From the NCBI RefSeq assembly GCF_026571515.1, contig NW_026854319.1:62001-126000 (forward strand): a DNA stretch of 64,000 nucleotides. The letters are read 5' to 3'. The notes under the pieces were generated by a model. That model was given only the letters and a program-made list of their open reading frames with translations, was not told the DNA's origin and searched no databases. The DNA comes from Ruditapes philippinarum. Its lineage: Eukaryota. This document shows, piece by piece, positions 3,897-62,335 of the stretch. Made by a program: the position numbers and the translations under genes. The number at the start of each line of letters is the position of its first letter. Position 1 is the first letter of the stretch.

Positions 3897-4095
3897 CTGC
3901 AGGTGAAAATTGTTTAAAGTTACATTATACATGTACACTTGTAAGCTGCATATATGCAAAGTTATCTATTTATGATTGATTTGCATATTTTGAGTCGACC
4001 CCTAATTAATCTTAGTAACTATGAGTCGCCAAAACACAATTAGAATTAAGTAACTTTGAGATTACCCGTACTGTTCCTATAATATTAATACATAC

Positions 4096-4365
4096 CGTCA
4101 GCTTCTATGAAATACACGACAGTATTTTCTCCAGCAGAATTACTCATTGTAAGTGAATAATTTCCAAAGTCTTCAACCTTGACCCCTTGGACGTCAACAG
4201 TTGACGTATACCCATCATCCACGTGCTGTACTGGAGCCCCACTATGCGTCCACACAAATGTCGGGGCCGGATAACCAGTCGCAAACATTTCCATCTTCAA
4301 AAACTCCCCGACTCTCGGCGTTTGTGTGTAAATGATAGTTTGTCCAGGGTCAGGTCTTGGAATAC
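4096..4365 (-). CDS. Gene A exon, Ig (I-set-like) domain 3
   Basis: 270 bp phase 1-1, motif GYPAPTFVW...EDFGNYSLTMSNSAG. Same length as and clearly similar to 30801-31070. Confidence 0.9.
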
Positions 4366-4933
4366 CTTAGATACATGAATTCAATAAGTTTTTTTAATTC
4401 TATTTATAGACAAATGTTCCGATTTTATAAATTCCATACCATTTAAAGTAAATTTAAAGTAAATAAATTCAAAATATACTAAATTACGTGCATAAGCATT
4501 AAAAATAACAAAGTTGTTGAGTTATGATGAATTATTTGATCTTCTTATTAATTTATCAGTCACACAGATCTGCCATGAAAAAAATATGTTAAAATGGGCG
4601 TGGTCTTAAATGAGATGAGGTATTCCAGATAGATAACAATAATCGGTGGTTTCTTTACAGGTTCGTGCTTCCAAAAGAAGCATTGTTCTAACCTTTGTAA
4701 AGTGCTGGTACAATAAAACCCCAATTCTGAAGACCGCTACCTAATCCAACCCTTAGGCAAAGGGATAAAGTGAATAGAAATGAAATAAACGAATTAAAAG
4801 AAAAAATAATAGATAATTATCTATTATGGAACAAAGGTCAAGGTTCATTTTTATATAACACTGCAATCTTCGGCAATATTTTGAGAATATACGATTTTAA
4901 ATATAAGATTGGTTGACCTACATTTGAACTTAC

Positions 4934-19119: not shown

Positions 19120-20159
19120 ATATTCAAGTTCTAAGTGTACATCTAAACGATCCTGCCAACAAGCTGCTGGTCTTGTTAAAGCTTTACTTTACAAAATTTG
19201 GATTAAAATAAATGTAAACATAAATTTCGATGAGATGAGGCATTTGACAGAATCAGTGATATAAAATCCGTTTTCTGGTTTTTGCTATATTTCTTTATCT
19301 TTATAATTATGCCATCTATTAAGTCAATCTTTGAAAGCATAAACTTGATTTTACGGGAAAAAAATGTATGAAGAAATAAATACCGACTTGCAGTCAATTT
19401 GCACTGACGCCAACGCTACTTTGTACAGCTGTTGTCGTCATTTTCAACTGCTGTCATTTTCAACTGTTGTGTCGTATTCCGACTGTATTAAGAGTATTAT
19501 GGGTAGTATAAATTTTCATACCTATTAGACAGGACTGATTTTGAGAATTTGGCCCTCTATAAGATGCTAGAGGCATTTTGTAGTACAAGTGGTATCTTGG
19601 TGTATTCTACCTATTTAAGGTATGCTGAATCCCATAAAGGTGGATACCAAATTGAAAAACTTGTGATCTTGACCATTGCAATGGCCGTTTAAAATGACCA
19701 CTAAAATGGCCGCCAAATTTCTTTATCATAAATGGATGATAGATCAAATAAAACTTTTACGGAAAGGAACAGCCTGAAATTTGTCACAAAGCAAGTTTAG
19801 GTAAAAACAAATTAGACACCAAAACAGAATTAAAAAAAAAACAAAACAATCCAATATGGCCGAAAAATGCAAGATGGCATACATTTTTCTATAGGATAAG
19901 ATAAAAGTAATAGAAGTAAAATTAAAGATAGTATTGGAATTTTTAAGGCATTTAAACATATTTAGGGGTTTACGAAGCGAACACTACACTCTTTCCTGTC
20001 CTATCTGCTAGATTTTATCTGGCACTCTATGCAAGCATATAGAGTGGCTACTCAGATGCCTACTTATATTTGCACAGCGTAAATATGTGTGAGGGGGTTA
20101 AAACGTGTGCATGCAAAATATACATTAATTAAAGGCACCTTTTTCTGAGTACTCTTGGG

Positions 20160-21172
20160 TTTTGGTGTTCGTTTTTCTGTAATCGGTCATCGTCTTCCGG
20201 TCGTCGTCTTCGTTCTTTTGTTATCGGTTCTCGTCGCATTTCTCTGCTGTCAGATCTTCTGTTATTTGTCGTCACTTTCGTTCTTCTGTAATCGGTCCTC
20301 GTCTCAGTTCTTTTGTTGTTAGATGTTCTGTTATCGGTCGTCGTCTTCGTTCTTCTGTTATCGGTCCTCGTCTCAGTTCTTTTGTTGTTAGATGTTCTGT
20401 TATCGGTCGTCGTCTTCGTTCTTCTGTTATCGGTCCTCGTCTCAGTTTTTTTGTTGTTAGATGTTCTGTTATCGGTGCTCGTCTTCGTTCTTCTCCGTTC
20501 TTCTGTCATCCGATGTCGTCTCTATTCTTCTGTAATCAGGCCTGGTCTCCGTTTTCTTGTTGTCATCGGTTTCCGTCTCTGTTATTGATCCCCGTCTTCA
20601 TTCTTCTGTCATCTGTCTATGTTATTGTGTTATCAATCTGCGTCTCGTTGTCTTGTTGTCAGTTCTTCTGTTATCGGTTCTCGTCTTTGTTCTTCTCAGT
20701 TCTTCTGTCATCGGTTCTCGTCCCTTTTCTTCTTTAGTCAGTCCTGGTCTCCGTTTTTTCATGTTGTCATCAAGTTCTATGTTATTTTGTTATCGGTCCT
20801 CGTCCTATTTTTCTGTTATCAATCTTCGTCTCCGTTGTCTTGTTGTGAGTTTTTCTGTTATCGGTCTCTGTTCTGTTTTGTTATCGGTTCTCGTCTTCGT
20901 TCTTCTGTCATCCGTTCTCGTCTCTTTTCTTCTGTAATCAGTCCTGGTCTCCGTTTTCATGTTGTGAATTCTTCTGTCACCGGTTCCCGTCTCTGTTCTC
21001 GACCCCTGTCTCCATTTTTCTGTCATCTGTTCTCGTCTACGTTATTCTTTTTCGGTCCTCGTCTCTATTTTTCTGTTATCAACCCTCGTTGTCTTGTTGT
21101 CAGTTTTCTGTTATCCGTCCTTGTCTCTGTTTTTCTGTTATCGGTCGACGTCTCTGTTCGCTTGTTGTCAGT
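20160..21172. repeat. Pyrimidine-rich minisatellite (ctgttatcggtcctcgtctc core) in TIR element copy 1
   Basis: Repeated 27/36-bp modules and 63-bp higher-order units. Confidence 0.9.
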
Positions 21173-21887
21173 ACCATTTTTTACAAGTAATATTTGTATA
21201 GATAACTTTGCTGTTACTTTAAGATATCCTAGAAATTTATTGGAGGGTACCCGGAATGATGTGATAATCTTCTTGTAGAATTTTCTCCAAACCGTGACTG
21301 AATTCCAAAATTTTCGAGAGCTGCCACACGTAACAATCTCCCGGTTTCAGACATTTTATGACTCGATGAATATATGGTGTTGTTATTGTTGTTGTTGTTT
21401 TAACTTTAAATTTCAAATTAAATAGTCACTTATTTTTAAACTTAAATATGCCCAAATGTCACCAACAGCAGTTTTGCATGTGGAAGGAATGTATTTTTCA
21501 GACTGTAAAAATGAAACAAACAAAAAATTAAGAGACGATATTTTGTGATTGGTAATTTAGATGAATAGAAGTAAGTTTTCTTCTTTTTATTACTTTTGAC
21601 ATTTAAGTTATTTATCAATTTCAACTTTGCTTTTCTCGAAACAGCCTGACATTGTCAGAATTGTCAGCAAAAATAAAATTGAGGTACCACATGGGGAAAA
21701 TCTTAAGAAAGTAGTTTCGTCATTGAAAAGTGTGAAATTATATTTTGATAATTTTCACTGTGAAATTATCAAATATAATTTTCACGGATAAATCAGTAAT
21801 CCACTGAAAAGCATAAAATAAAAAAAACTATGAAACTAATGTTAGTTAAAGTCATATCTGCTAAAAATGTAAACGTCATCGTTACTT

Positions 21888-21965
21888 CCGCAGTAGCACA
21901 GCCGGTTAAGTGATTGACTGATGTGTGAGAGGTCTATGGTTCGATTCCTACTGTTGCCATTTTTT
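21888..21965 (+). pseudogene. tRNA-like unit with oligo-T terminator (second copy at 38673-38750)
   Basis: A box TAGCACAGCCGG, B box GGTTCGATTCC, then CCA-TTTTTT. Confidence 0.55.
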
Positions 21966-22616
21966 AAGACCTGTTGTTTTTTTGTTGTTTTTTTTTTGTG
22001 GGGGCGCAGTATATATTTTAAAACACTTTTTGTCTCGGTTTGTGTTGTGTTTATGGCATTGAAATGACACTTTTTGACATTTCAAAATAATTTTTAAATA
22101 CTCATTTTAAACCATAAATACCATAATAAGTGCAAAATATATGAAAACAAAATGAACAACTTAAAAAAAATCATAGCTACAAATAATGTTGAAAATTACG
22201 GAACACCTGAAGTGACATTTTCCACACTTTCTCCCGGAATTGAATTCGTTTTTACGAGATAATAATTCCCAATTAGAAATATTATTTCGTTTTAACGAAA
22301 TATAAAATCTTAATTACGAAATATTGATTCGTTATTTCGAAATATTATTTCGTTATTACAAAATATTAATTTGTTATTGCGAAATATTTAAAACAGTAAA
22401 TATAGTAAAACAGTACTGTACATGTATATACTGTTAATTGAGCCATTAGGCTTACATTCGCTATATTTGGTAGCCAATCTCATTAAAATCTGATCATATT
22501 GAATAATCATTTGATTTTGACAATAATAATTAATTGCATCATATTGTATCATAGTTTCAATGACCTATTTTAGTATTTTTAAGCGACCATTTTGAATTGA
22601 CCTTTTGGAGGTCAAG

Positions 22617-23313
22617 TGTTATAAATTCTTCTCTCTCGTAATTTATAATTTCTACTACTTCCATAATTCCACGTAAAATATACACAATAACTGTTCTTAA
22701 TTTCATTTCACTGTTTATTTGTTTGAAAGTGTCCTAAATTTCTACTCTACAATTAATAATTAAAGTTACAGAGTTTTTCTTCCTCACACATGGTTGATAA
22801 GTCACTGAGAATTAACTCTCAAAAATCCCTATCCCGACTCTAGCTCTTACAATCTCACTCTTGCATTTTGAATATTGTTCTTCAATCTTCAATCTAGAAA
22901 CTTGAATGTTAACTGCCCCCAGAAAATCTTGTCCCAGTATTTATATGAAATACCTAGTCTCTCCATATTTGGAGGTTACCTTAGTGTTAATTGACAAATT
23001 TAAGCCTTCTATATTTATGACGACAAGTGTTGATCAAGTAACTGTACCAGAAACAAACAGACTGATCCCTGGAATATTTATGATGGTAACCAATGATTGA
23101 GTTCCCTAAACACAACAATTGCAGACCTCTTGTCCATTATTTATGCAGGTACCCGTTGACAGAGATACCAAACTAAAATCTCCCAGACTGATACACAGTC
23201 TAGCCCCAACAGATTTATAGCAATAAATAATGACAACAAATGAGGTCTCAATTCTCATACAAACTCAATCATTAAATCAAACCTAAACCAGGTGCCTTGC
23301 TAAAACTACAACA
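22617..23313 (-). repeat. 3' LTR (697 bp)
   Basis: TGTT...AACA ends, adjacent PPT, AATAAA at 22719-22714. The last 102 bp match 30356-30457. Confidence 0.92.
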
Positions 23314-23326
23314 CTCCCCCAACCTT
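23314..23326 (-). other. Polypurine tract
   Basis: AAGGTTGGGGGAG immediately before the 3' LTR TGTTG on the minus strand. Confidence 0.8.
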
Positions 23327-23982
23327 AAAAAGCTTAATTGTCCCAATTAAGTTAACAACACCAAACAAAAATATAGAAATGAAACAAAAATCAGTGACTA
23401 TTCAACCAATCTTACTCCCAAAATGAATAGAAGTTTAACAAGAAAACATTCTCAATTAACATATAAACACTGCATTAACTAAAATAAGCATTATTCAAAT
23501 ACGAAATTCTAAGAAAATACTAAATCTACAGAAATGTTACTTCTGTTAACGACAAAAATTTTTCTGACTACAATTATACATTGAATACTCAAAACAAACT
23601 AATTAAAGTTCTCAAACAGTTATTCAACTTTTAACACCGTGTTTTAATATCAAAATGAAACTTATTTTGTCACTCAATTATATAATATAATTGTTCTGTT
23701 GTCCTTTTTTTTTACTATTTCACAATAATATATCCTAATTCAATCTTTCACACATTGTCTATTTCTTGCACACAAAGTCCTGGTGCCTATTTATTTCTTA
23801 ATAAATTTTAACAAATGTGTAAGAATTCTTTAAAGGCACAAACTGAATATAAGATTTGTTTGGTAGTCGTCTCTACCATAAAGTCCTAAGTGCCAAAATA
23901 TTAAACTTAATATTTATATATATCATAATTAAAATTAAAAAAATGGCACTGATTGTTAAACTGAAAATAAAACACTTTAAAA

Positions 23983-24180
23983 TCCAATTTGAATCAGAAT
24001 CACACAATAATATTCCAATCGAAAATAACACCAATTAATATTCCAAATTGAAAAGAATCACAAGTTAATATTCCAATTCAGAATGAACAACAATTAATAT
24101 TCCAATTTGAAATGAATCACAAGGTAATATTCCATTTTGAACAAATCACTTATTAATTCCAATTACGATTTATATCCAAT
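23983..24180. repeat. ~29-bp degenerate tandem array (core TAATATTCCAA), about 6-7 units
   Basis: Cores at 24008, 24036, 24066, 24095, 24125 and 24154. Confidence 0.85.
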
Positions 24181-24249
24181 ATATATATTTTTGCAAGAAG
24201 TAATCATGAAAAATTCATCTTTTCCCCCCTCTTTTCACTTTCATTTTCT

Positions 24250-24729
24250 TCATTTTTGAAATTCTAGAATTTTGTTTCTTAAACTGTCTAATTCTTCAAG
24301 GAGTTCAGTTGGAATTTGTTTCTTCTGGTTATTAATTTTTGCCGAAAGAGAGTCCAGTTTTTCTTCAATGTTAGATAATCTTTGGTTTATTTTATCGAAT
24401 GCTGTAGATAATTCATTGTTAGAATCTGATCTTAGAATTGTATAAGGTGTTGTACTTGGCAGTCTAGATGCTGGCTCAAGTGGTCTCATTGTTATAGACG
24501 ATGCACTTCCATAGTAAGGCACATGTGATGTATATATGCCAGGAAATGTAGCTGCTGATGGTGGTGGAGATATTGTTTCATGTCGTCGTTTTGTAGTTTG
24601 TTTTTCCATGTCTACTCCTGCGATTCTTTCAAAATAATTGTCGTTCATAGTGAAAATACAATACTTTTCGTGTTTCAAAAGTCCTGACTTATTCGAATAT
24701 AACTTTTTACAGCTTTTACACTCTTGCAT
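24250..24729 (-). CDS. Accessory ORF3 of the gypsy element: C2HC zinc finger + basic patch + P/S/T-rich region + coiled coil, 159 aa
   Basis: CKSC-x12-H-x3-C at the N-terminus, heptad pattern INQRLSNIEEKLDSL, intact ATG ORF between pol and the PPT. Confidence 0.8.
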   Translation of the reverse strand: MQECKSCKKLYSNKSGLLKHEKYCIFTMNDNYFERIAGVDMEKQTTKRRHETISPPPSAATFPGIYTSHVPYYGSASSITMRPLEPASRLPSTTPYTILRSDSNNELSTAFDKINQRLSNIEEKLDSLSAKINNQKKQIPTELLEELDSLRNKILEFQK

Positions 24730-24883
24730 TTATTTTTCTCATAAACCTCCAATAATATAAATTAATTTTAACAAGAGTTAAAAAATCCAATAAAATATGA
24801 TAATCAATTGTTTTCAGATATTCCAAATTATTATAATTATTTTATCAATTCTGTACACAGTTCTGAACGCTTGAAAACTTGGA

Positions 24884-24916
24884 AATGACTGCAAAATCTC
24901 AGAGTACCCTTATATA
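24884..24916 (-). promoter_or_regulatory. Candidate internal core promoter for ORF3
   Basis: TATATAAG at 24916-24909 and Inr-like CAGTCATT with its A at 24886, 30 nt downstream. Confidence 0.55.
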
Positions 24917-24984
24917 TCCAACATGTTCTCCTTTGAAATTAAAACTTAATGAAAGATATTTTACATGATGATTCTTTATGATCT

Positions 24985-27900
24985 TTATGTTCTGTGCTGG
25001 TATGGTATGTGTTGAGTCCTATTCCTTTTACCTCTTCTTACTTGTTGAAAATCTGATTCAGATGTCATCTTCTGCATTGTCTTAGTTTCTTTGATTTGTG
25101 ATTTATTGTTATTCTTGTTGATTCTCGCCATGTTTGATTGCCAATTTGTCATTCGATTTCCATAGTAGTGTTTCAGACGATCATGATGTATGACTTTTGT
25201 TTTTGTTGCAGACCCCATTTTGATTTCAAACAGAACATCATTAATTTTCTTTGTTATGATAACTGGTCCTTTCCAGATAAAAGGTTCAATCTTCTTACTC
25301 CTACCTTTCACTTTTGATTTGTCCCAGTATAACACTAAATCTCCCTTATTGAATGAAGTTTTATGTGCTCTACTGTCATAATCCTTCTTTTGGCGATTTG
25401 CACTTTTCTTGAGAGTTTTCCTAGCAATGGAATATGCCTTTGTCATTCTATCTTCAAGTTCTATTACATAATCCACATGTCTTTGTGCTTGTTTCTCTAA
25501 TATACACCCCATTGATATTTCAACCGGCAACAATACTTCTCTTCCTAACATAAGCATATTTGGACTAAATCCTGTGCCTGGATGAACAGTACTTCTATAA
25601 GCTGCAGTAATCAAATTAAGATTTTTGTCCCAGTTTGTTTGATTTTCATTAACATAGGTTGTAATCATGTTTTGCAAGACTTGGTTAAATTTTTCAGGTC
25701 CTCCATTGGCCATTGGTCTGTAACCGGATGTGCGTGTCTGATTTATTTCCAGCAATCTGCAAACTTCATTAAACAATTTTGATTGATAATTAGAGCCCAA
25801 GTCTGAATGAATATCTAAACACATGCCGTATCGAGACAAAAACTCGTACACTATTTTCTCGGCCACAGTACTAGCAAGTTGATCTTTAATTGCATAACAC
25901 TCCACCCATTTTGTAAAATTGCACATTACAACTAGGATATAAACATTGCCATTATCGGTCTTTGTCATAGGTCCCATGATATCAGTACTGACCCTGTCCA
26001 TTACATGTCCAACAGTGTATTCGGATAGAGGTGATCTTGGAGTTTTGTGAGGTCTTTTCCGAAATGAACATTTCTCACATTGTTTAATATACATTTCCAC
26101 ACTGTGTCTTAATTTATACCAATAGAACTTGCATTTTATTTTCGACAAAGTTTTTGTAATTCCCAAATGAGCGCCTGTAACTGAGTCATGTGTAGATACC
26201 AAAATTTCTTTTTGTAAAACCTTTGGAACAACAAGAAGCAAAGTCTCCTCTCTTGTGTTGAGGATATATTTTGTAAACAGCACTCCATCTTTCATCACTA
26301 GTAAGTCATAATTTAACCAGTAATTACGTATGCCTGGAGAATATCCAGCTATCTTGTCCCTGGAGGGTCGTTTGTTTTCAATAACCCATGTTATCACAAC
26401 TCCTAAATCTGGGTCTGCTCTCTGTAATTTTGCCATTCTGACTGGTGAATAATTAATAGTGTTGAACTGCTTAAGACAACCCAAGTTAGATGCCTGAGCT
26501 TCATTTTCCGATGAAACAACTTCGCCACCTAGTATGGAATTTACGTCCTTGTCAACCACTTGTGTATTATTTTCACCCATGTTGAGATTGTTTCCACTTC
26601 TTTCACCACGCGAATGTAGGCTTTCACGGAAACGAAGTCGACCAATGCGATATCGAAAATACTTCCTTGCCCTTTTTATTCCATGGAAAAGTGATTTTAA
26701 ACAACTCATCAATTTTATAATTTGCAGCTGCATTAACACGAAAATATAACTCCAAAATGTACATTCATTTTGTGGTTTCACTCGTAACACAACAGGTTTG
26801 ATACTTTTCCCTTCACCTATGTTCCTATCGAACAAGGGAACAACATTATCAAATTTGGCAAAATCCGACCAAGACTCGTGTTTCTTCATACAGGTTACAC
26901 ATCCTTTGCAAGGTAAATTTTCCAAGATTGTTTTTCCATCATAACAACTACACTCTTCTGGTTCACATGACATTCTAGAGAGACTGTCAACATTTGTATG
27001 TTTTTTTCCACTTCTATGTTCAATCCTAAAATTAAACTGTGACAAAACTTCTAACCAGCGAGCCATTTGATCTGTCGGCGACTTGAATGACATTAACCAT
27101 CGTAGACTCGAACAATCTGTCCTCAAAAGAAATTCTCTCCCTAAAAGGTAGTGTCTGAACTGAGTAATAAAAGTTACAACACCCAAAAGTTCTCTTCTAG
27201 TTGCACAATAACGTCTTTGTGTTTTGTCGAAAGACTTACTTGCAAATATTATAGGCTTCTCAACGTAATCTTGTGCTTCCTCTGACCACTGCATTTGTGA
27301 TAAACATCCACCACATGCAAAATTACTACTATCAGTGTCAACAATAAATAATCCATTGTCTTGCGGGTAAGCTAACACATCTTCACTTGTAAGTGCTGAC
27401 TTTAAATCCATAAATGAAGCATCTTGTTCTGATCCCCAAATAAACGCTCGACCGGCCTCCATTAAGCGATTAAGAGGAGCTGCCCTCCCACTATATCCTT
27501 TAATAAAACGTCTGTAATAACCGCAAAATCCTAAAAAGCTTCTTAAATTTGTCAAATTTTGTGGTACAGGCCATTCCTTTACAGCCTTAAGTTTCTCCTC
27601 TGTAGGGCGTATTCCAGAACTATCAATTGTATGACCCAGTATATTTATACTTTTCTGTAATAAAGTGCATTTACTAGCTTTTAATTTCAAACCATTTTTC
27701 TCAAGTCTAGATAATATTTCATCTAATCTATTTAATGCTCCATCAAAAGTCTCTGCAAATGTACAAATGTCATCCATATATATTATCATTGTCTTCCACT
27801 GTAAATTTTTAAACACTAATTCCATACATCTTTGAAATGTGTGTGGTGACCCTGTCAAACCTTGCGGCATGGTCACATACTGATAAAGTCCACCTCTACT

Positions 27901-29277
27901 TGTACAAAACGCAGTCTTCTCACGATCCCTTTTATCCAATTCAATCTGGTAAAACCCCGAAAGTAAATCTAATGAACTATAATAATTATTTCCTCCCAAA
28001 GATTCAAGACAAGATTCTATTCTTGGTAACGGATAAGCGCATTTTTTGCTTAAATTGTTCAAACCCCTGTAATCCACACAAACTCGTACACCACCCTGAG
28101 GTCCCTTTTTCCGTACAAAACATAAAGGTGCAGACCAAGGACTCGTGCTCTCTTCTATAATTCCCATGTCCAATTGCTGCTGAATGATCTTTTCTTCCTG
28201 TCCTTCAAAAGCCTTTGGCACACGTCTTGGTGGAATTTTGATTGGCCTGACATTTTCTGGAACTTCAATAGTATGTTTCACAACAGAGGTACGACCTAAA
28301 TCTGTAGGAGAACTTGAAAATGCATTTTTATGTTTTTCTAATAGATGTTTCAATTTTTCCTTTTGTAAATTATCAAGATTTTCTGAAGATCTCTGATATA
28401 ACTCTTTTAATTCACTGTTCCATTTTGTGATATCGCACTTAATATTATCCTCATTTATTTCGAAAGTTGCCGACAATTTGCAGTCATCTAAGTTCACATT
28501 TTCTTTCAATAAATCTTCTTGATTTAATTCATGCAAATATCCCAATAATGACCCCTTGGTTAATTTCACATTTCTATCAGAGGTATTAACCAGTCTTATA
28601 GGAATTGAATTGCCTTGAAGTTCCCTTGGGGATACTAGCACACTTCCCATAAAAACTTTATTCACTGGCCATTTATTTTCCAAAGGGCAGATGATGCCTA
28701 ATGATGAGTTAATTGTTCCAAGATTTATTGCCTTGCCAGGTATAACAATTTCTGAGTTTGCTGGAATTGATACCTTTGACCGCGTAGTAATTTTCACCGC
28801 TCTTAATGGCACTTTCTCCACAAATGTCTTTCATTTTTTCCCATTTAATTTTAATCCTTTTTGAGCACTAAGTTCAAAATTATTTTCATTTAAGAAGTCT
28901 AATCCTATTAATCCATCTTCATGATTATGTGCAACAAAAACCGTTTACTCAAAAGTTTGACCTGCATTTGTAAAAGAAAATTCACATTGACCAACTATAG
29001 TTAATAATCCATCATTTGCGACTTCAAAGCGCACTGAACGTTCAACATCAGACAAAATAGGTCGAATATCTTCTGGAATTCTATAATAAAATGCAGACGA
29101 TAATATTGTACAACAAGCTCCAGTGTCTATAACAAAATTTGCATTCACAGTATCAAAAATTTTTACAGGCATAATAAGCGAAACACCATTTGCATTAGCA
29201 CTCCTACACTTAATTGTCTTATATACAATGTCATTGTTACTGACCAAGTCTGGGCCGTAAGGCTTGGTCTGAGTTAG
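24985..29277 (-). pseudogene. pol: pol polyprotein (protease, RT, RNase H, integrase) with two in-frame stops
   Basis: DTGA and GLIGLDFL (PR), YMDD (RT), DSS/RELL (RH), HHCC plus DDE and GP motif (IN). TAA at 28947-28945 and TGA at 28833-28831. Confidence 0.95.
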
Positions 29278-29283
29278 TTTCCC
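29242..29283 (-). promoter_or_regulatory. -1 ribosomal frameshift signal (gag to pol)
   Basis: Slippery G GGA AAC (29283-29277), 7-nt spacer, stem GACCAAG/CTTGGTC. pol is in the -1 frame. Confidence 0.85.
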
Positions 29284-30355
29284 TGAGAAAGTTGATTTGA
29301 TGGACAATCCCGAGCATAATGTCCGAGAGTATGGCATTTGTAGCAAGTGACATTCTTGTAGTCCGGTTTATTTGACTGACGCTGAGTAAATTTCTGGTTG
29401 TTGTTTGCCTTTAAATTCAATTGATTTGCTAGCTGGTCAATTTTCTTCCCTAATGATGATTTCAGATCCTTACCAAAATCTTGAAGACGGGCTTCTGTGA
29501 CGTATTCTTCCTTTTTATCAATACTCCTGATCCGAGGGCCTCTTACATCATCCCTTATACTTGTATAGTTGTCTAACAATTCTCTAGCATGGTCTATTGT
29601 CTTAGGGTCTTGCATCCCGATGAACAAAGCTGCTTGTGAATCTTGAAGTCCCTTCAAAAAATGACGTAAATTTATGGTTTCTCGAGTGGCATTGTCAGCA
29701 GTAGGGTATCCCTTAATCACCAACCTTTTTACGCTTGCAACATACTCAGCCAGAGTTTCCTTCTCGCGAAAATATTTGCGATTTTCCAATTCAGCCAAAT
29801 ACGAAGCAGTAGATCGTTTTTCTTGAAATCTTGTAATAAGTGCAGTTTGAAGAAGATTGTAACTGTTCAATGTGTCTTGTCCCACTTGCTTAAATATGTA
29901 TTCTGCAGCCTCGCCTCGCAAACTGTTTTTCAGACGGAACAGTCGCTCATTGTTGTCCCAATTGCAAGCTATAGCCATGGCCTCAAATGGATTGATGAAG
30001 CTTTCCCATGAATTTTTCCCATCAAAAAGAGTTTGTCTGGGGAGTGGAACGTCATACTTCCTATGTGAAATTCCATTTGAATTTCCAATATTTGACTGTG
30101 AACCATTTCTTTGTGAAAGAGCTATATCTGCTTCAAGTTGCCTTATCTGATTATTTTTCTCAATGCTAATGTCATTAATTCTCTGTTGATACTGATTCAC
30201 AATTTCATCTCTCTGTAACACGGATTCTTGCTCTTTTTTTCTAATAATTTCTTCTAATTTTCTATTTTCTTCTTCTGCAATTCTCAGTTTTTCATGTAAC
30301 AACTCAGTTTCTGATAAAACGTTGTCACCAAATTGTTCTTCATTTATTGTTCTTT
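29274..30355 (-). CDS. gag: gag, N-terminally deleted
   Basis: Coiled coil, capsid-like FDGKNSWESF...LRGEA, CCHC knuckle CYKCHTLGHYARDC. Confidence 0.9.
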
Positions 30356-30457
30356 GATTTATAGTAATAAATAATGACAACAAATGAGGTCTCAATTCTC
30401 ATACAAACTCAATCATTAAATCAAACCTTAACCAGGTGCCTTGCTAAAACTACAACA
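30356..30457 (-). repeat. Truncated 5' LTR (first 102 bp only)
   Basis: 100/102 identical to 23212-23313 and fused directly to gag coding sequence. Confidence 0.92.
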
Positions 30458-30800
30458 CAAGGTCAATTTTATTTTCTTGGTATCCACCCTCATCGTCTTC
30501 AGCATACCCATATTAGGTTAAAACACTCAAGATATTACTTGTACTATAAAATGCCTCTAGCATTCATATTTTCTTAAAATCAGTCCTGTTTACATCTGTC
30601 ATTTGCTTTCAAAGTTGGTCTGTAAATTCGTCTTTTTCATGTTCAAGCTCGGGTTCCGTTGTCTTACTAATTCCAGTTAAAATATTATTAAAACACGAAA
30701 CTTAAAATCCATTCACAAATAAAAATGTGAGTTATAATTATCTTTTTGTTTAATTTCTAAAGTAATTGTATTGATTTAAATTCAAATCTGTTTCAAAAAG

Positions 30801-31070
30801 GCGTACCATACCTTGATCCGGACAAGACGACACAGTTTGAGATGAGACCCCGCCTAGGGGAGACAATCTACCTGGAAATGCACTCCGCTGGCTTTCCACA
30901 GCCTAGTTTCACGTGGTCTTTTGGGGGCGCTCCATTAAAGCATACTGACGAGGGTTACACAAGTACGGTGCAGCTGGACAATGTTCACATGCATGACTTC
31001 GGGGAATATCGGTTGGATATGGAAAATTCAGTTGGAAAAACAACTTACTTCTTTCACGTGATTCCGTCAG
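30801..31070 (+). CDS. Gene B exon, Ig domain 3
   Basis: 270 bp, GFPQPSFTW...DFGEYRLDMENSVG, paralogous to 4096-4365. Confidence 0.88.
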
Positions 31071-31773
31071 GTATACTAATTTATACCTAAGACGCCTGCA
31101 AGAGAAATCACTCCCTATTTCAAAACATATTTGACGCAGATTTTTTGTTGTTGTTTTGTATCATCGCATAACGAGAGTTGTAAATGGGATACAGAACTGG
31201 TTTTAGTTTGTCCGTCAGTCCAGCCGTTCAGATGTCTGGCCGTCTATATGTTCATCTTCTTTAAGACCGATGAAACAAATTTTATTTGTCATGTTTACTT
31301 GCGCATGTCGTAAAGATTTGACCTTGACTCATAAAATGCCATGACATTCATGGTAAATTCTTATAGTTTTAACATGACTTTAAAATGACCTTGTCATTCA
31401 TTGTCAAATCTTTTAATTCTGCTAAAAATTGCCATAGCTTTGTTATTAATGCTTGTATTGTTTTCATACTTAGACATAAAAACCCTTTTGCCAACACAAT
31501 TAAGAAGGTTAAACTTAACTTAAATATAACTTTTACCTTTATAGTAAAATTATTGATTTGTTTTTCTGAAATTGGAAATACCCTTATTATTAATGCTCAA
31601 CTTTGATTTCTATATGGACAAACTAAAAGTAAGCATAAACCGGGGGGGGTGGCAGTTAAGATATACATTACATGCAGTAAAACATAACCCCATAACGTCA
31701 CCTCGGGGAGAACGTTCTTCCGTTCGTAGGCAATTGGTTTCCGCAGCATACATTTTTCGTTAATGTGTAATAT

Positions 31774-35355: not shown

Positions 35356-36029
35356 AAGATACACATGTTTATCTTAATAATCTAAAATCATTTATAGCTT
35401 AATAGACAGGACTGACTTTGAGAATTTGGCTCCCTATAAGATGCTAGAGGCACTTTGTAGTACAAGTGGTATCTTGGTGTATTTTAACTATTTAAGGTAT
35501 GCTGAATCCGATAAAAGTGAATACCAAATTGAAAAACTTGATCTTGACCATTGAAATGGCCATTTGAAATGACCACTAAAATGGGCGCCAAATTTCTTTA
35601 ACATGAAATGGATGATATATCAAATAAAACTTTTAAGGAAAGGAAAAGCCTGAAATTTGTCACAAAGCATGTTTAGGTAAAAACAAATTAGACACCAAAA
35701 CAGAATTAAAAAAACAAAACAATCAAATATGGCCGAATAGTCCAAGATGGTGGACATTTTTCTATAGGCCAATATAATACTAATATAGAAGTAATATTAA
35801 AGATAGTACTGAAAATTTTAAGGCATTTAAACATAAGAGACCTGTATTTAGGGTTTACGCAGCGTACACTTCACTCTTCCCTGCCCTATCTGCTTGATAT
35901 AGGGCTTTTATGTATTTTATCTGGCACTCTATGCAAGCATATAACGTGACTATTCAGATTCCTACTGCGAGGAGGTTAAACATGTGCATGCAAAATATAC
36001 ATTAATTAAACCTTTCTCTGAGTACTCTT

Positions 36030-37000
36030 GGGTTTTGATGCTCGTTTGTTAGCGGTAGTCGTCTGCGCACTTCTGTTATCGGTCCTGGTCTCAGTTCTTC
36101 TGTTGTCAGATGTTCTGTTATCGGTTCACGTCTCTGTTTTCGGTCGTCGTCTTTGTTCTTCTGTTATCGGCCCTGGTCTCAGTTCATTTGTTGTCAGATG
36201 TTCTGTTATCGGTCGTCGTCTTTGTTCTTCTGTTATCGGTTATCGGTTCTCGTCTTCGTTCTTCTCCGTTCATCTATCATCGGTTCCCAACTCTATTTTT
36301 CTGTAATCAGTCCTGGTTTCCGTTTTCTTGTTAATTCTTCTGTTATCGGTCCTCGTCTCTGTTCGCTTGTTGTCAGTTTTTCTGTTATCGGTTCCTGTCT
36401 CTGATCTTCTGTTATCGGTCCTCGTCTCTGTTCGCTTGTTGTCAGTTTTTCTGTTATCGGTTCCTGTCTCTGTTCTTCTGTTATTGGTCGACGTCTCTGT
36501 TCGCTTGTTGTCAGATCTTGTGTTCTTGTGTCCATGTCTCTCTTCTTCTGTTTTCAGTCCTCGTCACTGTCCTTCTGTTATCGGTCCTCGTCTCCGTTCG
36601 CTTGTTGTCAGTTTTTCTTTTTTTTATCGGTTCCTGTCTCTGTTCATCTGTTATTGGTCGACGTCTCTGTTCGCTTGTTGTCAGTTCTTGTGTTCACGGT
36701 CCCTGTCTCTCTTCTTCTGTTTTCAGTCCTCGTCACTGTCCTTCTGTTATCGGTCCTCGTCTCCGTTCGCTTGTTGTCAGTTTTTCTGTTATCGGTTCCT
36801 GTCTCTGTTCTTCTGTTATCGGTCCTCGTCTCCGTTCACTTGTTGTCGGTTTTTCTGTTGTCAGTTTTTCTGTTGTCAGTTTTTCTGTTGTCGGTCCCTG
36901 TCTCTGTTCTTCTGTTATCGGTCCTCGTCTCTGTTCGCTTGTTGTCAGTTCTTGTCTCCGTTCTTCCTTCTGTCATCGGTCGTCGTCTTCGGTCTTGTAC
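36030..37000. repeat. Same minisatellite in TIR element copy 2
   Basis: Repeated ttctgttatcggtcctcgtctctgttcgcttgttgtcag. Confidence 0.9.
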
Positions 37001-37111
37001 TTTCGGTACTTATTTCCTGTTCCGTTAAGGTCTTCTCTTGTATACTATGGTTGCCGTCATTCTGTGTCGATGTCCTGGTTTTGTCAGTCTTGTTGTCATT
37101 TATTCGTTCAG

Positions 37112-37185
37112 TGGAGTAGCGGGGGATCGAACTCACGACCCCTTGATTTGTAGGCAGACAGTGTTACCACTGCACCATAGCGCCC
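37112..37185 (-). pseudogene. tRNA-derived Pol III head
   Basis: A box TGGTGCAGTGG, B box GAGTTCGATCCC. Acceptor stem does not pair. Confidence 0.7.
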
Positions 37186-39831
37186 GCTCTGAATAATAAC
37201 CATTTTTGAAAGTCCTTTATACTTTAAATACTATTTCAATGGCTAACAAAGGGTGTATTACAATTATATTTTAACACCTCTACTATGTAATCAACCCACG
37301 TGACTTTTATATATGGTCAAAGTAAATATTACTCGATTTATTACAAGTAATATTTTTATAGATAACTTTGCTGTTACTTTAAGATATCCTGGATTTATTG
37401 GAGGGTACCCGGAATTCTAATGTATATCAAATGATGTGATAATCTTCTTGTAGAATTTTCTCAAAACCGTGACTGAATTCCAAAATTTTCGAGAGCTGCC
37501 ATGGTAAAGCAAGCACACATAGCAATCTCCCAGTTTCAGACAATTTATGACTCTATGAAAATATGGTGTTGTTATTGTTGTTGTTGTTTTTAACTTTAAC
37601 TTTAAATTTCAAATTAAATAGTCACTTATTTTTAAACAAGATGGTAAACATTTGGTGTTTTCTGTAATTTTTGTTAAGAATGTGATGAAGTATACACTTC
37701 TAAGTTTAAGATGACTTTTTATCCATCGTATACCTTAATGCAGTTATAATTGAATCTAAAAAATGAATTATGCAGACATTATTTTCAGCAGAAAACAACA
37801 AATACAAAAAAAACCACACACAAAAAACTTACATGCAGCATACATGTGTAATGTTCACAATGTGCTGAAAAACGGCTCTTTATTAATTTCAATATTTCAG
37901 CAAGTTACACATTTTATAAATGAATGGGACAGAAATGTTGTTGTAACCTTTAAAAAGTAGGATTTGTAAAAATTTGTAAGTTGGCTATTTTTTACCTAGT
38001 TTGCTCAACACTCAAATAACACATTTTTATATATAAAACAACTTTCATAGATTGAGATAGATCCATAATGTCGTAGATATTTGGGTTACAACAGGAGTTT
38101 TTGATCCTGATAATGTTTTAAGTAGGAGAAACATATTCTTAAAATTTTGTACTGCCTTAATTCATTTTTTTAAATACATGCAATTATGTTATTATTATGT
38201 CTTTAGTTAATAGTTTCTAGAGAAAAGCCTTAACAAAGGTGGTATCTTTTATTTTATATATAAATTTTATAATGTGTCACATGTCGCCTTTAAAAAGATT
38301 TTGTGGTGATTTTGCGCATACTTAATCCCGCTTTTGCATGTTGGAACAACAATATTTTATTTGTTTGTATACACAGGCTAATTGCTTATTTTGTATAATC
38401 TTATTTTATTGACCTGTAAATTATGAATACATTACAGCACTCATTGAAATATTAGATTCCACTTCGATTTCGTTAGTAAAGTTTACGCGAATTAATAGAG
38501 GATATTTGTTTGTTTGTGTGTAAGATGAAATTTTATTTCATCGGGTGGGCTTTAAACAAGTGGCGTAGCCACGAGTGAGAATACTGTTCTTAAAGTTCAC
38601 GAGTATAGTAAACTATAAAACTAATGTTAGTGAAAGTCATATCTGCTAAAAATGTAAACGTTATCGTTACTACCGCAGTAGCATTGCCGGTTAAGTGATT
38701 GACTGATATGTGAGAGGTCTATGGTTCGATTCCTACTGTTTCCCTTTTTTAAGACCTACTGTTTTTTTTTTTGTTGTTTTTTTTTTTTTTTTTTTTTTTG
38801 GGGGGGGGGGGGCGTCGGGGTTGGTGGTAGGGGTGGGGTGGGGTAGTATATATTTTAAAACACTTTTGTCTCGGTCTGTGTTGTGTTTATGGCATTGAAA
38901 TGACATTTTTTGACATTTCAAAATAATTAAATTAAATATTAATTTTAAACCATAAATACTTTAATAAGTGCAAAATAAATGAAAACAAAATGAACAACTT
39001 AAAAAAAATCATAGCTACAAATAATGTTGAAAATAACGGAACACCTGAAGTGACATTTTCCACACTTTCTCCCGGAATTGAAATCGTTTTTACGAGATAA
39101 TAATTCCCAATTAGAAATATTATTTCGTTTTAACGAAATATAAAATCTTAATTACGAAATATTGATTCCTTATTACGAAATATTATTTCGTAATTACGAA
39201 ATATTAATTCGTTATTACGAAATATTAAGTTACGATATATTAATTTGTTATTATGAAATATTCATTCTTTGGTAAAATTTATAAAGAAGGATTTGAAACT
39301 AAGTTTATTGTTTAAAAAATATAAGTCAAGTAAACAAAACATAAAAAGTGATTTTTTTTTCAATCTTAGTCTTATACCGTAACGCGCTAGTAAAACAGTA
39401 CTGTATATTACTGTTTATTGAGCCATTGGGCTTATTATCGTTATATTTGGTGGCTAATCTCATTAAAATCTGATCATATTGAATAATCATTTGATTTTGA
39501 CAAGAATAATTAATTGCATCATATTGTATCATAGTTTTAATGACCTATTTAAGTATTTTTAAGCGGCCATTTTGAATTGACCTTTTGAAGGTCAAGGTCA
39601 ATTTTATTATCTTGGTATCCACCCTCATCGTCTTCAGCATACCCATATTAGGTTAAAACTCTCAAGATATTACTTGTACTATAAAATGCCTCTAGCATTC
39701 ATATTTTCTTAAAATCAGTCCTGTCTATAACATAATGTTTAAAGTTTTGTTAACAAAATTGACTCTTACTGCGTCAATAGTACAATTTTACCAAATGAGC
39801 GCTAGCGGTAAAAAAAAAACTTTGGCCTGGA

Positions 39832-47400: not shown

Positions 47401-50299
47401 CTGAAATGATAAAAAAAATTGTTTGAATCTAACTGCTTTTTCTTGTTCATCTATTTTAACTATATCAAATGGACTTTTCGTAATGTAGATGTAAATACAT
47501 GACATAATTTTTAACATCTGTTCATTAGTGCAACCACACATGTTTGCACTTATTTAAAATAAACTTTTGATTAATTAAATTTGTCGATTTGCAAATTTTG
47601 GTCTACCGAAAATCGTTGAACTTTTCATTGGATAAAAAATGCAGAAGTTTTATTTGATCTTAAAATGACCAAACCGCATCAAAAGAGATACATAGACTTA
47701 AAAATGATAATCGATAAGGTGATTAATTAATTGAAACGCTTTTAATTTCACGATTAAAGCAATTAAATGACGGAAGTCAACTTGGCAATAAAATCCTGAC
47801 GTATACATGTAAATATAGACCTCAAAATTGACTGTCGATCGTACCGAAGAATTACCCTGACAAATATATGTGTGTGTTACTTGTTAACAAGCTAGGGCAG
47901 TCAACAAAGTAATAAAAAAGAGAACTTTTTCGTCGGCTAACAGGCGAACTAATTTGCGAACTATCCATCAAATCGCGATACAAATATTTTTCCGGAAAGG
48001 TCTTAATTCTCTAAATCGTTAAATGACAGAAAACATTATTCAAGAGCATATTTTATGTCTAACTAGCCTTACTTGTAATATATCTGTAAGATTTTCACAC
48101 AAGATTCCCCCTGTAAATTGACTCGATCCCTGACCTTATGACACGGGTCTGCACGGGGTTTAGAGAGGGCGCTTTTTATTTTCCCCTATTCACATCGATT
48201 GCAATCTTATATTTTTTTGTCTTCTTTATGAAGTAAATTCTTTATAAACTATAAAACTGTAAATTACAAACGCACGTTAAAATGAGATAAATCTGTTGAT
48301 AGGTGCAAGATGCTTGCCCTGAAATATGACACCCCCACATCAGTCCCTTTTGCTTCGCGATAATAAATTTTTATGAGGTACCAAAACGAAAAAAGAAGAT
48401 TTAAGTTTTCTTGAAACCAAAGAAAACAAAGCCCATCATGATATTTACATGATGCAAATAATAATGTAAGCAATTAATATTATTAATATTATCTATATAC
48501 AACTGCGCGCATTTTAAAGAAGTTAATATCAAAAATATGAAATATGACTCTTTCTAAAATATTTTCTAAAAAAATGGCTAACTATTTCTCTTTTATTTAA
48601 CGGCAATGTTTTGAGTTTGAATCATCGGTCTGCACATAATCATTTACTTTTTAACCAAAAAAATCAAAGCCGAAATAGTTCACATAATTATACGCTTTTA
48701 TTTCGCTTCATTTTTTATATTATAAGTAAGTTCCGACTAGCCACCATAACATTATTTTTCGTATGTAAATTGAATTTGCTCTTAAGCTTTCTTATGCTCA
48801 TATCCAAAACAAAGATAATTTATTTGACACATATATATGTTGCCTAGATTTTCATTAAAATAATAATAGTTATAATTATAAATTTTAACATTTTTTTGTC
48901 CTTTTTATTAATTTTTAGCTTCATTATTTGAAAGAAAACCCTGAAAATCGAAGACAATATCATAGTTCCTTATATATTCTTTTTTTTTTTTTTGCATTTT
49001 ACGTTACAATTAAACGTAGGTTGCAATGATAATATACAACTAACATATTATAAATAATATAGATTTATTAGCAAAAATGTATATATTTCCTTATTTTTTT
49101 ATATACATAATATATAAATTTCGAACGGTTGTACAAACTTCAACGCTTAATTTAAACAGTAGAGTTAACTTAACAGTTCTTGAAAACTCAACCGATTATT
49201 TTATAGATTTCTTTCGATAATTTTGAAACAAAGTCGATCTAATATCGATACAATATCGATACAAATATCTAATATATTACAACGATATGTTTCCTAATCA
49301 TAGTACTTGATCTTTATTAAAATCTCAAAGTTATATTTCAAGATTTGCGCTAAGATAGTGTGGGTTTTTTATGAAAGAAAATGATAAAAATTGTAATGTC
49401 TTCCAAATTTCCTGGAAAAGTCTACTTTTTGAAAGTTTGGTGCTAGAAGATCCGCTTAGAACTTAAGATTTCATGGAAAACGGTTTCACAATAAAGATAA
49501 GTTCAGATCAAGAATAATCAAGTTCAATATTGCATTTTCTCGATGAAGCCACTGAATTTTATTTAAATATATTAAGATTCGTGGCTTCATATATATTCCA
49601 ATAAACCTTTGCAAATGTTATCCATTGGATATTACAATTTTAAAATAACCACTACAATGTACAACTTAATTGTTCTCGTGTAAATCATACAGAAATACCC
49701 CTTTAATTGTTCACCACAGAATGCTGTCTTTAACCATAGTGACATAGGAATGCTACTAATTAAAGAGAAACTCTCTGTTTAACAATTTGTTCAACCTTTT
49801 GTCAGAAACATACAATTATACCCATAAAGCATTTCTAACATATCTTTATATGACACAAACTAGATATGTTCTGTTAATCTTTATCTCTGTTGCAAATACA
49901 AATAATTTCCATGTAACGCTATTTGCCAAACATTTATATATATAGAATTCATTCGGATTTTTTTTTGAGAAGTGATTGTGTGATGGGGTTTTGTTTTTGA
50001 TTTCAAACAAGATTTCATAACAATGAAAAGAAGATAACAAAATAGCGTTACACCCGATGCTTGTAATAATGCAATACGTGCTCAATAATCTTCTTTATCA
50101 AAAAAATAATGATGATGCTTTTGATCTAATATTGATAAAGAACAATCGAACTATATGTAGACAGTTCCTTTACTAATAGGTAGGCAAAGTATTTTTGAAA
50201 ACAATTTTAACGTACAAAAGTTTGATTTAAGATATTAGAAAAGATGCAAGCAGAACATGTGTAAGATTTTATCTGTTAAAAATCTTTAAATTTAATTAC

Positions 50300-50876
50300 C
50301 TGCAGAAGGTCTGTCGGAATATCTTGTACAGTATACCCAAGCCGGCCATAACTTTTCATCTTGTTGTTTTTGCCCAGACTCTGAGTTTGGACTCGAGCCC
50401 GGACTGCCGGCTGGGCTGGTCGCCGGACTGCTTTTAATACTTTCTCCGTCGGAACCACATGATTCCCGCCGGGAATCAGAACTTGTATTATGAATGTCTT
50501 TATTTTTCACTTCTAAATTGAGTCCATAACTTGTAGTTTGTTTCAATAAACTGTTTGGACTGTGAAGTCCTTTATCTTGGAGACTAGTGCAATGTTTGTT
50601 TAACACAAAATTATGACAAGTTTTTGGTGAAAAAGCACTGAACTGTAATCCTAGATGATGTAATGACTGCGCAGTCCACGTGTGTAAATCTGCTAAATGT
50701 AAACTGTTCGTTTGTCCGTATGTATTTTTGTCTTTCGATAGATTTAAAACACCTGTGGTCAATTGTTTATTTCCAAACCCCGGTTTCAGAATTTCTGAAA
50801 TACTGAAGTTAGTAAAATTTTCATCCTGCTCGTGCGATTCCATATTTCTCGAAGAATTTATCTCTTCCTCTTTCAT
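50300..50876 (-). CDS. en: engrailed homeobox gene, exon 1
   Basis: EH1 motif TNFSISEILKPGFG, EH2 motif WPAWVYCTRYSDRPSAG, donor G|gtaatt. First ATG at 50876. Confidence 0.97.
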
Positions 50877-51019
50877 CAATTATTTTATGAACACTATATT
50901 TTATAACTTTCGTAACATTCAAGCTGAAGAGGCGTAAGTTAAGTGATCTAAAATTGAAAAGTCAACCGATGATATTTAATCCATAGAGACTATCGTTTAG
51001 TTTGATTAACCGCATCTAC

Positions 51020-60626: not shown

Positions 60627-61231
60627 TAAAGGTTGCACTTTTGCATCAATGATGAATACGACTTTTTTCTTGTGAAGGTAAAGCAAACCTGTATTTTAAT
60701 TTTTTGATAATGAATTAGGTGTTTAGTTTTATAGCATGCATAGCATGTGTCCATGCATATAAACACTACAAGTACAAACGTGAAAAGGAACATGCACAAA
60801 TAGATTTGGTCACGTGTTATATCAACATCAGCAAACGGCCTGTTAAATAAGAAATCACATTAACAGAAAAGTAAACACATTGATAGAAAGGTAGATAGGA
60901 TTTAGAGTATGTTAGCTGCTTATCAAGTGAAGAAGCCAACATTGAATGTGAAATAATTTTTCAAGATACATGTAGTAACAAAACATTAAAAGCAACATGG
61001 TATCTTGTCTTCCGGTCAAAAAGCAAAACATTATACTGCTCTTTGACAAATAAGTACCGTTTCGGAGACCTTTACAGAAGACCAATAATAAAAAAAGCAC
61101 TTAAAATAAAGAAAATCAATACATTTTGGGTCTTAAAGATAACAGTTATATTGGCTGTCAAAAGCATTAATGTTTTAGGTATATTTTAAAGTTATATACC
61201 AAGCACAACAGCGGCACAACATAATTATTAT

Positions 61232-62335
61232 GTTCTGAAACCTATTGACCTACTAAAACATGTTGGCCTGTTTATACCTGTTGGCATGTTGAAACATGTT
61301 GAATTATTGAAACATGTTGGCCTGTTGAAACATGTTGGCCTGTTGAAACATGTTGGCCTGTTGAAACATGTTGGCCTGTTGAAACATGTTGAACTATTGA
61401 AACATGTTGGCCTGTTGAAACATATTGGCCTATTGAAACATGTTGGCCTGTTGAAACATGTTGAACTATTGAAACATGTTGGCCTGTTGAAACATGTTGA
61501 ACTATTGAAACATGTTGGCCTGTTGAAACATGTTGACCTATTGAAACATGTTGACCTATTGAAACATGTTGGCCTGTTGAAACATGTTGAACTATTGAAA
61601 CATGTTGGCCTGTTGAAACATGTTGAACTGTTGAAACATGTTGGCCTGTTGAAACATGTTGGCCTGTTGAAACATGTTGGCCTGTTTGAAACATGTTGGC
61701 CTGTTGAAACAAGTTGAACTGTTGAAACATGTTGAATTATTGAAACATGTTGGCCTGTTGAAACATGTTGAACTGTTGAAACATGTTGAATTATTGAAAC
61801 ATGTTGGCCTGTTGAAACATGTTGGCCTGTTGAAACATGTTGGCCTGTTGAAACATGTTGAACTGTTGAAACATGTTGGCCTGTTTAAACATGTTGGCAT
61901 GTTGAAACATGTTGAACTATTGAAACATGTTGGCCTGTTGAAACATGTTGACCTATTGAAACATGTTGGCCTGTTGAAACATGTTGGCCTATTGAAACAT
62001 GTTGGCCTGTTGAAACATGTTGATCTATTGAAACATGTTAGCCTGTTGAAACATGTTGAACTATTGAAACATGTTGGCCTGTTGAAACCTATTGACCTAC
62101 TAAAACATGTTGACCCATTGAAGCATGTTGGCCCTGTTGAAACTATTGGCATATTGATACATATTGACCTATTGAAACATGTTGACCTGTTGAAACCTAT
62201 TGGCCTATTGAAACATATTTGCCTGTTGGAACGTGTTGGCCTATTGAAACATGTTAACCTATAGAAATATGTTGGCATGTTGAATCATGTAAGCATGTTG
62301 GAACATGTTGGCCTGCTGAAACATGTTGGCATGGC
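61232..62335. repeat. 18-bp minisatellite (TGTTGAAACATGTTGGCC / TATTGAAACATGTTGAAC), about 60 units
   Basis: Direct periodicity, palindromic AACATGTT core, degenerate edges. Confidence 0.97.

Follow-up and report, generated by a model that had tools for sequence, protein, structure and literature searches.

A zinc-finger accessory gene in the env position of a gypsy retrotransposon from Ruditapes philippinarum and across its clade

[quoted passage not shown] We find that ORF3 is the short form of a zinc-finger accessory gene that is spread widely across a gypsy clade, that has been lost from most copies of the window family and that has been exchanged between its sublineages. A preliminary description of the window had regarded ORF3 as a genuine accessory gene, and this is supported by zinc-finger ORFs at the same position throughout the clade and in metagenomes, and by purifying selection in other families. 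The finding is broader across the clade than first thought and weaker at the window locus itself.

The element is enclosed by a target-site duplication (Table 1), and a paralogous empty site with one copy of the target site lies near 39593. The order of pol domains, PR-RT-RNase H-IN, is of the gypsy type, with RT, RNase H and also integrase above the Pfam cut-off and protease below it. In its present state the window copy is non-autonomous. It had been described as having a deleted 5′ LTR and a broken pol, and both defects are real: about 102 nt of the 5′ LTR remain, and pol contains two in-frame stops (28947-28945 and 28833-28831), being open from RT to IN over 1281 aa. Compared with the family copy C12876, which has a PBS-like motif, the deletion following the 5′ LTR remnant takes the rest of the LTR, the PBS, the leader and the start of gag. 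The 3′ LTR has at least 40 scored matches among 236 genome candidates. Neither strand of the 3′ untranslated stretch (23327-24249) holds another ATG ORF of at least 40 aa, and the LTR-adjacent PPT is situated about 930 nt beyond the ORF3 stop.

Table 1. Features of the ORF3-bearing element, in window coordinates
Feature	Position	Strand	Remarks
Ty3/gypsy LTR retrotransposon copy, 7841 nt	22617..30457	-	Pfam domain order; ends TGTT...AACA
4-bp target-site duplication, gag-side copy	30458..30461	+	
5′ LTR remnant, about 102 nt	30356..30457	-	98% identity to 3′ LTR start
gag without start	29274..30341	-	one CCHC knuckle
pol (PR-RT-RH-IN)	24985..29367	-	two in-frame stops, within the protease region and immediately behind it
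Recombinant cassette (TATA/Inr, ORF3, start of 3′ UTR)	24058..24984	-	matches another sublineage than the backbone
TATA box candidate, TATATAAG	24909..24916	-	68 nt past the pol stop
Inr-like TCATT	24884..24888	-	predicted start 24886
Upstream ORF, out of frame, 8 codons	24716..24742	-	ATG at 24742; overlaps ORF3 start
ORF3, 159 aa, ATG to TGA	24250..24729	-	zinc finger, disordered linker, coiled coil (open reading frame and model)
CCHC zinc finger, single, classical type	24658..24720	-	ORF3 residues 4-24
KRRH basic patch	24580..24591	-	ORF3 residues 47-50
Two predicted helices	24256..24423	-	ORF3 residues 103-137 and 141-158; block pLDDT 77-93 over 111-159
3′ untranslated stretch, long, AT-rich	23327..24249	-	short repeats at 23969-24137
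Polypurine tract (PPT)	23314..23326	-	adjoins the 3′ LTR
3′ LTR, 697 nt	22617..23313	-	LTR comparison
4-bp target-site duplication, 3′ LTR-side copy	22613..22616	+	

ORF3 is present on the pol strand as the claimed sense frame after pol, and its finger (ligands C4-x2-C7-x12-H20-x3-C24), KRRH patch, P/S/T-rich middle and C-terminal heptads (F111-I114-L118-I121-L125-L128-I132) are all located as the preliminary description had them. An ATG frame of at least 159 aa appeared in none of 2000 shuffles of the region between the pol stop and the LTR, the longest shuffled ORF reaching 126 aa. The view that the gene is not env also holds, since the peak 19-residue hydropathy of 0.2 indicates no TM helix or signal-like stretch, and no env family scores above the Pfam cut-off. 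The KRRH patch is a possible nuclear signal. The out-of-frame ATG upstream could lower the translation of ORF3.

None of 22 Pfam families matches ORF3 above the cut-off, the zinc-finger and coiled-coil matches being sub-threshold only (zf-C2H2 on ORF3 alone, E 0.081). The spacing of the finger follows the classical C-x2-C-x3-aromatic-x5-L-x2-H. Modelled on a 19-row alignment, 18 rows of which are fingers of related elements, the N-terminal 33 residues come out as beta-beta-alpha (pLDDT 90-94 over residues 1-20); the finger profile matches classical C2H2 proteins in the PDB, and a leave-one-out profile built without the window row recovers the window finger at E 4.5e-5. The single-sequence model of ORF3 (mean pLDDT 58.7) has confident helices at 103-137 and 141-158, a disordered middle and an unfolded finger, and its Foldseek search returned nothing at E<=0.001. 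Structure prediction thus yields a classical beta-beta-alpha fold for the finger and two helices at the C-terminus. The RhxxhE motif, which the available text of PMC5940361 gives as a trimerisation motif, is found at ORF3 residues 117-122 and also in the coiled coils of L051 and L055; each of the subclade's three families has it. The protein libraries searched hold few animal transposon proteins, and their blanks carry little weight: a word-based search with ORF3 gave one near-identical fragment only, among 48 candidates, HMMER against 1.84 billion representatives gave nine hits (the near-identical fragment, two short ones at 73-79% and six long ones at 17-34% identity), and a search with the L051 ORF gave two close hits.

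How widespread is the gene? An integrase search of the genome yielded 150 scored matches, and we examined 70 of them, the top 30 and 40 with a long open pol, a selection that favours young elements; an incomplete match or a short flank led to the exclusion of two. A zinc-finger ORF sits after pol or is fused to it at 47 of the remaining 68 loci, some of which are near-identical copies, against none in antisense and none in shuffled sequence; 39 of these are sense ORFs of at least 120 aa with a zinc-finger pattern and 8 are fused to pol. Of the 21 loci without such an ORF, 9 come from the window family or the sister family; several of the rest have frameshifted ORFs or TatD ORFs. Of 80 metagenome loci, 36 were set aside because the flank was short or the match partial, and 28 of the 44 contigs left (some of them duplicates) carry a zinc-finger ORF, compared with 2 in antisense and 0.25 in shuffled sequence. 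A zinc-finger gene at the position of ORF3 is present in related elements of both collections. The closest outside relative is L149, which shares 63% identity over the pol segment used for the search; it carries a zinc-finger ORF of 155 aa. An integrase tree restricted to the 68 own-genome loci places the window element together with L051/L059 and the sister family (support 96/92). Recent capture of ORF3 by the window family was considered and is rejected by the zinc-finger ORFs at the same position in sister families and other collections.

The C-termini of these third ORFs vary between coiled coil, BTB and TatD. A KCTD-type BTB scores above the Pfam cut-off in 3 of 33 own-genome ORFs scanned (L061:2179-3438, L111:2679-4373 and L117:1590-3224), where it follows N-terminal fingers and occupies two separate branches. 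TatD is above the cut-off in 7 of the same 33 (L114, L119, L129, L134, L139, L143, L144) and in 8 of 30 metagenome ORFs scanned (L160, L161, L163, L166, L167, L168, L170, L177); most TatD ORFs have an internal zinc finger, and they fall on one branch of the integrase tree. Purifying selection is evident in all seven pairs from other families (synonymous excess, P<=0.002). The sister family resembles that of the window in having an intact 245-aa ORF in L082 and several separate deletions in other copies; a synonymous excess is seen in 4 of its 6 pairs (P<=0.017), and is significant in the coiled coil (P=0.003) and not in the finger region (P=0.52, 13 changes). ORF3 and the sister protein are only weakly similar in direct comparison (25% identity, E 7e-6 in a single comparison), so that the case for homology beyond the finger and coil is one of position and architecture. 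An 81-codon ORF downstream in the sister family was rejected as a conserved gene, 0 of 10 comparisons being significant.

Within its own family, ORF3 presents a different picture. In the 1.41 Gb genome it matches eight stretches at six loci on five contigs, and the other five loci are all broken by stops or frameshifts or lack a start. Thirty family loci were fetched out of 68 DNA matches, and 25 retain the TATA region; ORF3 is present in 2 of these, and in the other 23 the sequence skips from about 24843 to the ORF3 stop or past it. One copy without it, C12876, has open gag and pol, LTRs that are 97.4% alike and 98% identity to the window. ORF3 is missing from open gag/pol elements in two families (C12876; C3740 and C7416), and the losses are several separate deletions. 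The window backbone is 97-100% identical to the ORF3-less copies C12876 and C15433 through gag and pol, and ORF3-less copies match it again at 96-99% from 24057 to 23058. Between these segments, across 24984-24058, it is 96-100% identical to C7054, as against 75-96% in the backbone. All four combinations of backbone (long or internally deleted) and cassette (with and without ORF3) occur, which indicates exchange by recombination, and judging from these alignments the window copy is a recombinant carrying the ORF3 cassette of another sublineage.

Selection on ORF3 in the window family is undetectable, and its substitution pattern is near-neutral. Pairwise dN/dS values are 0.52-0.72, and 0 of 5 pairs are significant against a composition-matched null (P=0.08-0.20), compared with 4 of 4 pol controls under the same null (P 0.0003-0.017). 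Polarised changes pooled over the family include 17 synonymous out of 57 against 15.4 expected (P=0.36), and the stem of the window ORF3 lineage has 13 nonsynonymous and 5 synonymous changes against 4.3 expected synonymous. The coiled-coil half compared with C13765 gives P=0.02, post hoc. The supposition that ORF3 would be neither absent from its relatives nor neutrally evolving in them thus stands for the clade, where the gene is present and under purifying selection elsewhere, and fails for the close copies, most of which lack it, and for the window family's own ORF3, which is indistinguishable from neutral.

These observations bear on the possibility that ORF3 was once functional in the clade and in the window family may simply be decaying, the frame being intact here as the insertion is young and the cassette has had little time to break. 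Such a relic is the leading alternative to the reading favoured below; we consider it unlikely, yet it has several facts on its side. Apart from the loss from 23 of 25 copies, one of them with open gag and pol, and the neutral look of the substitutions, ORF3 has 159 aa and one finger against 245-279 aa in the other forms of the subclade and two fingers in L051 and L059, and the 5′ LTR remnant is nearly identical to the 3′ LTR. Against decay speaks the persistence of an open frame, of all four ligands and of the trimer motif despite 12-20% divergence of the cassette from sublineages bearing stops and frameshifts, in a comparison of low power with 18 lineage changes only, together with the post hoc signal in the coiled-coil half.

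The route of ORF3 expression was proposed to be an internal promoter. The A of TCATT at 24886 is placed 30 nt from the TATA box candidate, and the combined pattern, defined after viewing the site, arises in 0.2% of 20000 intergenic shuffles. Both motifs are unchanged in 22 of the 25 family copies, and the sister family has a TATA at comparable distance from pol. Among 29 own-genome family representatives of the clade, TATA is not enriched (11 of 29 vs 7.3 expected), whereas a splice-acceptor-like site ahead of the finger is (13 of 29 vs 3.9 expected). What stands of the proposal is the presence of the TATA and Inr-like motifs, in excess of chance at this site, the promoter itself being putative and its TATA no rule for the clade. 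In the window's subclade, each of the three families carries a TATA and lacks an acceptor, and no acceptor-like site lies within 120 nt of the ORF3 finger. By analogy with the start mapped for Tor env (PMC4402516), this fits a local switch to an internal promoter in the window's subclade. The idea that the LTR promoter had been copied to form the internal one was rejected (P=0.31).

Four sets of contigs from runs guessed to be RNA (X1-X4) cover ORF3, and contigs of this kind cannot place a transcript start. In X1, the contig over ORF3 breaks off at 24896, which is 10 nt upstream of the predicted start, and the sole X1 contig further upstream represents the ORF3-less allele; the ends in X2, X3 and X4 are elsewhere, further downstream, and an X15 contig of uncertain type spans the TATA. 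No splice joint was seen in the contigs covering ORF3 from the runs guessed to be RNA. A raw-read entry recorded as RNA consists of unstranded reads, 62% of which run into unrelated sequence, with loose ends at GATC; we infer that it is proximity-ligation DNA, and so uninformative on expression. In a distant relative, L151:1500-1570, a TATA with CAGT about 30 nt on precedes the ATG of a zinc-finger ORF, as judged by eye. Internally deleted copies (window 25196-24843; L021-L043) have lost most of pol and kept the integrase tail and the TATA region, which may represent a cis signal. The C13765/C5103 sublineage is without the integrase-tail/TATA region.

What could be the function of ORF3? Our tentative preference, held at somewhat less than an even chance, is for an oligomeric nuclear protein that regulates expression of the elements themselves in trans. 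This ORF3 protein, associating with itself, would have the DNA or RNA of the elements as its target and would promote their expression. The coiled coil would bundle several single fingers, probably three as the motif alone suggests, providing an avidity that one finger lacks, and in other families BTB may take over the bundling part. The TATA/Inr site would yield a short mRNA independent of the 5′ LTR, with splicing in its place in other families. If the product acts in trans, few copies could suffice, so that copies could shed ORF3 and regain it; a few ORF3 copies would serve all, and the others would delete it and recover it by template switching. The protein is likely a shared helper acting from outside rather than a part that every copy needs. 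As for its target, we lean towards binding of LTR DNA that raises transcription over a role in RNA export. This reading of ORF3 as a regulator is supported by the clade-wide zinc-finger ORFs, the selection in other families, the RhxxhE motif, the fold models, the absence of ORF3 from open elements, the cassette combinations and the CERV precedent. It is weakened by the lack of a selection signal in its own family, the non-significant finger of the sister family, the broken state of the other loci, the unenriched TATA, the single CCHC finger and the upstream ATG.

Protein-binding fingers, too, typically occur singly and use CCHC ligands. ORF3 could be a partner of integrase, tethering the integration complex to chromatin or DNA in the manner of the chromodomain and PHD tails of other gypsy elements. 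This is suggested by a branch of eight loci (L131, L133, L135, L137, L141, L145, L147, L148; support 100/100) with fingers in frame at the pol end, in tails of about 300-355 aa that in several cases include a coiled-coil-like part, and by PHD (PF00628) or chromodomain (PF00385) matches in some related pol proteins. The fused tails, however, keep a Met just past the pol end motif, which fits separate expression, and the window-family gene is separate and missing from young copies with proper target-site duplications; we regard a role in integration as improbable. Still less probable is that ORF3 counters host silencing as an adaptor that binds proteins, or as a decoy; its finger would bind a host factor, and other families would add an effector (BTB or the TatD nuclease) of which the short form is devoid. 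The recurrence of these two domains among the third ORFs favours it, and rapid change and domain swapping would fit a conflict with the host, but the window protein has no catalytic domain, its amino-acid change is not above neutral, and the target is only hypothetical.

Element-encoded trans-acting regulators are represented by Tas of foamy viruses, which are retroviruses with an internal promoter, and by VANC of an Arabidopsis DNA transposon; no Pfam match of ORF3 to either was found. Closer to our case is CERV of the Caenorhabditis elegans gypsy element Cer1, described in the available text of PMC10309623 as a nuclear protein encoded in the env position, with a leucine zipper, KRKK and a Cys loop, and needed for RNA export. 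[quoted passage not shown] The same text gives it 517 aa, splicing to gag-frame exons, a C4 loop with a G-like domain and an occurrence in nematodes only, whereas ORF3, which most copies lack, has 159 aa, a CCHC finger of classical type and an ATG of its own; no C4 loop or G-like domain of the CERV type was found in the ORF3 model, which comprises a finger, a disordered linker and two helices. According to the portion of a review at hand (PMC7264820), gene23 of maize Grande is also a gypsy accessory gene that follows pol and precedes the 3′ LTR, with its own promoter and a nuclear product, as proposed for ORF3; it differs in being antisense, in a plant and present in most copies, and the word "zinc" does not occur in that portion. 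The env genes of Oikopleura Tor3b/4b, in the accessible part of PMC4402516, use an internal promoter in some groups and the LTR in others, the start having been mapped by RACE. Tor elements are animal gypsy elements with a third gene, like the window element, but their product is a membrane glycoprotein, and the ORF3 start is only predicted. Interchangeable non-env ORF3s, including a nuclease, have been gained and lost across the lineage of Vesta, Juno and TelKA of bdelloid rotifers, as stated in the available text of PMC5408684; these are GDSL esterases, DEDDy exonucleases and TM proteins, unlike the window ORF3, and neither "zinc" nor "finger" appears in that text.

The concept of a gypsy accessory regulator or an internal promoter is thus already known from CERV, Grande gene23 and Tor, as far as the available texts go, and to this extent ORF3 matches described systems; its zinc-finger family was not found in the literature searched. 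Third ORFs with zinc finger, BTB or TatD in animal gypsy elements were not found in the full-text literature searched, and Repbase entries, supplements or subscription journals, which lie beyond that search, may annotate them. A search for TatD with gypsy retrotransposons gave a wheat genome paper only, and "zinc" is absent from the available texts of PMC6238403, PMC8556966, PMC8220671, PMC13524379, PMC7998251 and PMC6338049.

Few gypsy elements are known to encode their own regulator, and tested cases such as CERV are rarer. A clade-wide finger gene with swappable partners and apparently three routes of expression lends itself to comparative study of the control of retrotransposon expression and of resistance to silencing. 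More speculatively, and with less assurance than we attach to the regulator itself, a large and old animal gypsy lineage might be "complex" as a whole, with a modular zinc-finger regulator in place of env, its partner domain being exchanged between a trimeric coiled coil, a KCTD-type BTB and a TatD nuclease, and its expression route switching between splicing, internal promoter and integrase fusion; in the window family the gene would be a shared good, supplied in trans by few copies, shed by most, restored by recombination and still expressed by the broken window copy. The coexistence of copies with and without ORF3 in one genome makes the idea of helpers and cheaters testable with sequence and RNA data. 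A further caution is that, in genomes of this kind, gene models with zinc fingers, BTB or TatD may in some cases be cargo of transposons.

Several further features were recorded. Among metagenome third ORFs, L194:2227-3006 has a 3CxxC zinc ribbon and a zinc knuckle, and L156:6265-7089 a weak GDSL lipase match below the cut-off. Precomputed matches to PHD (PF00628) or macrodomain (PF01661) are present in the pol proteins P0064, P0066, P0068, P0075, P0084 and P0081. In the window, a block with a simple-repeat core is duplicated (19523-22616 and 35400-39727), its second copy holding the empty insertion site of the element. An 18-nt tandem array at 61110-62284 gives long open frames on both strands, and a 195-codon open frame at 50292-50879 (minus strand) has no Pfam match at E<=0.01. 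Two immunoglobulin I-set-like exons, at 30761-31087 (plus strand) and 4082-4366 (minus strand), are 42% identical, and the element lies about 300 nt from the former.
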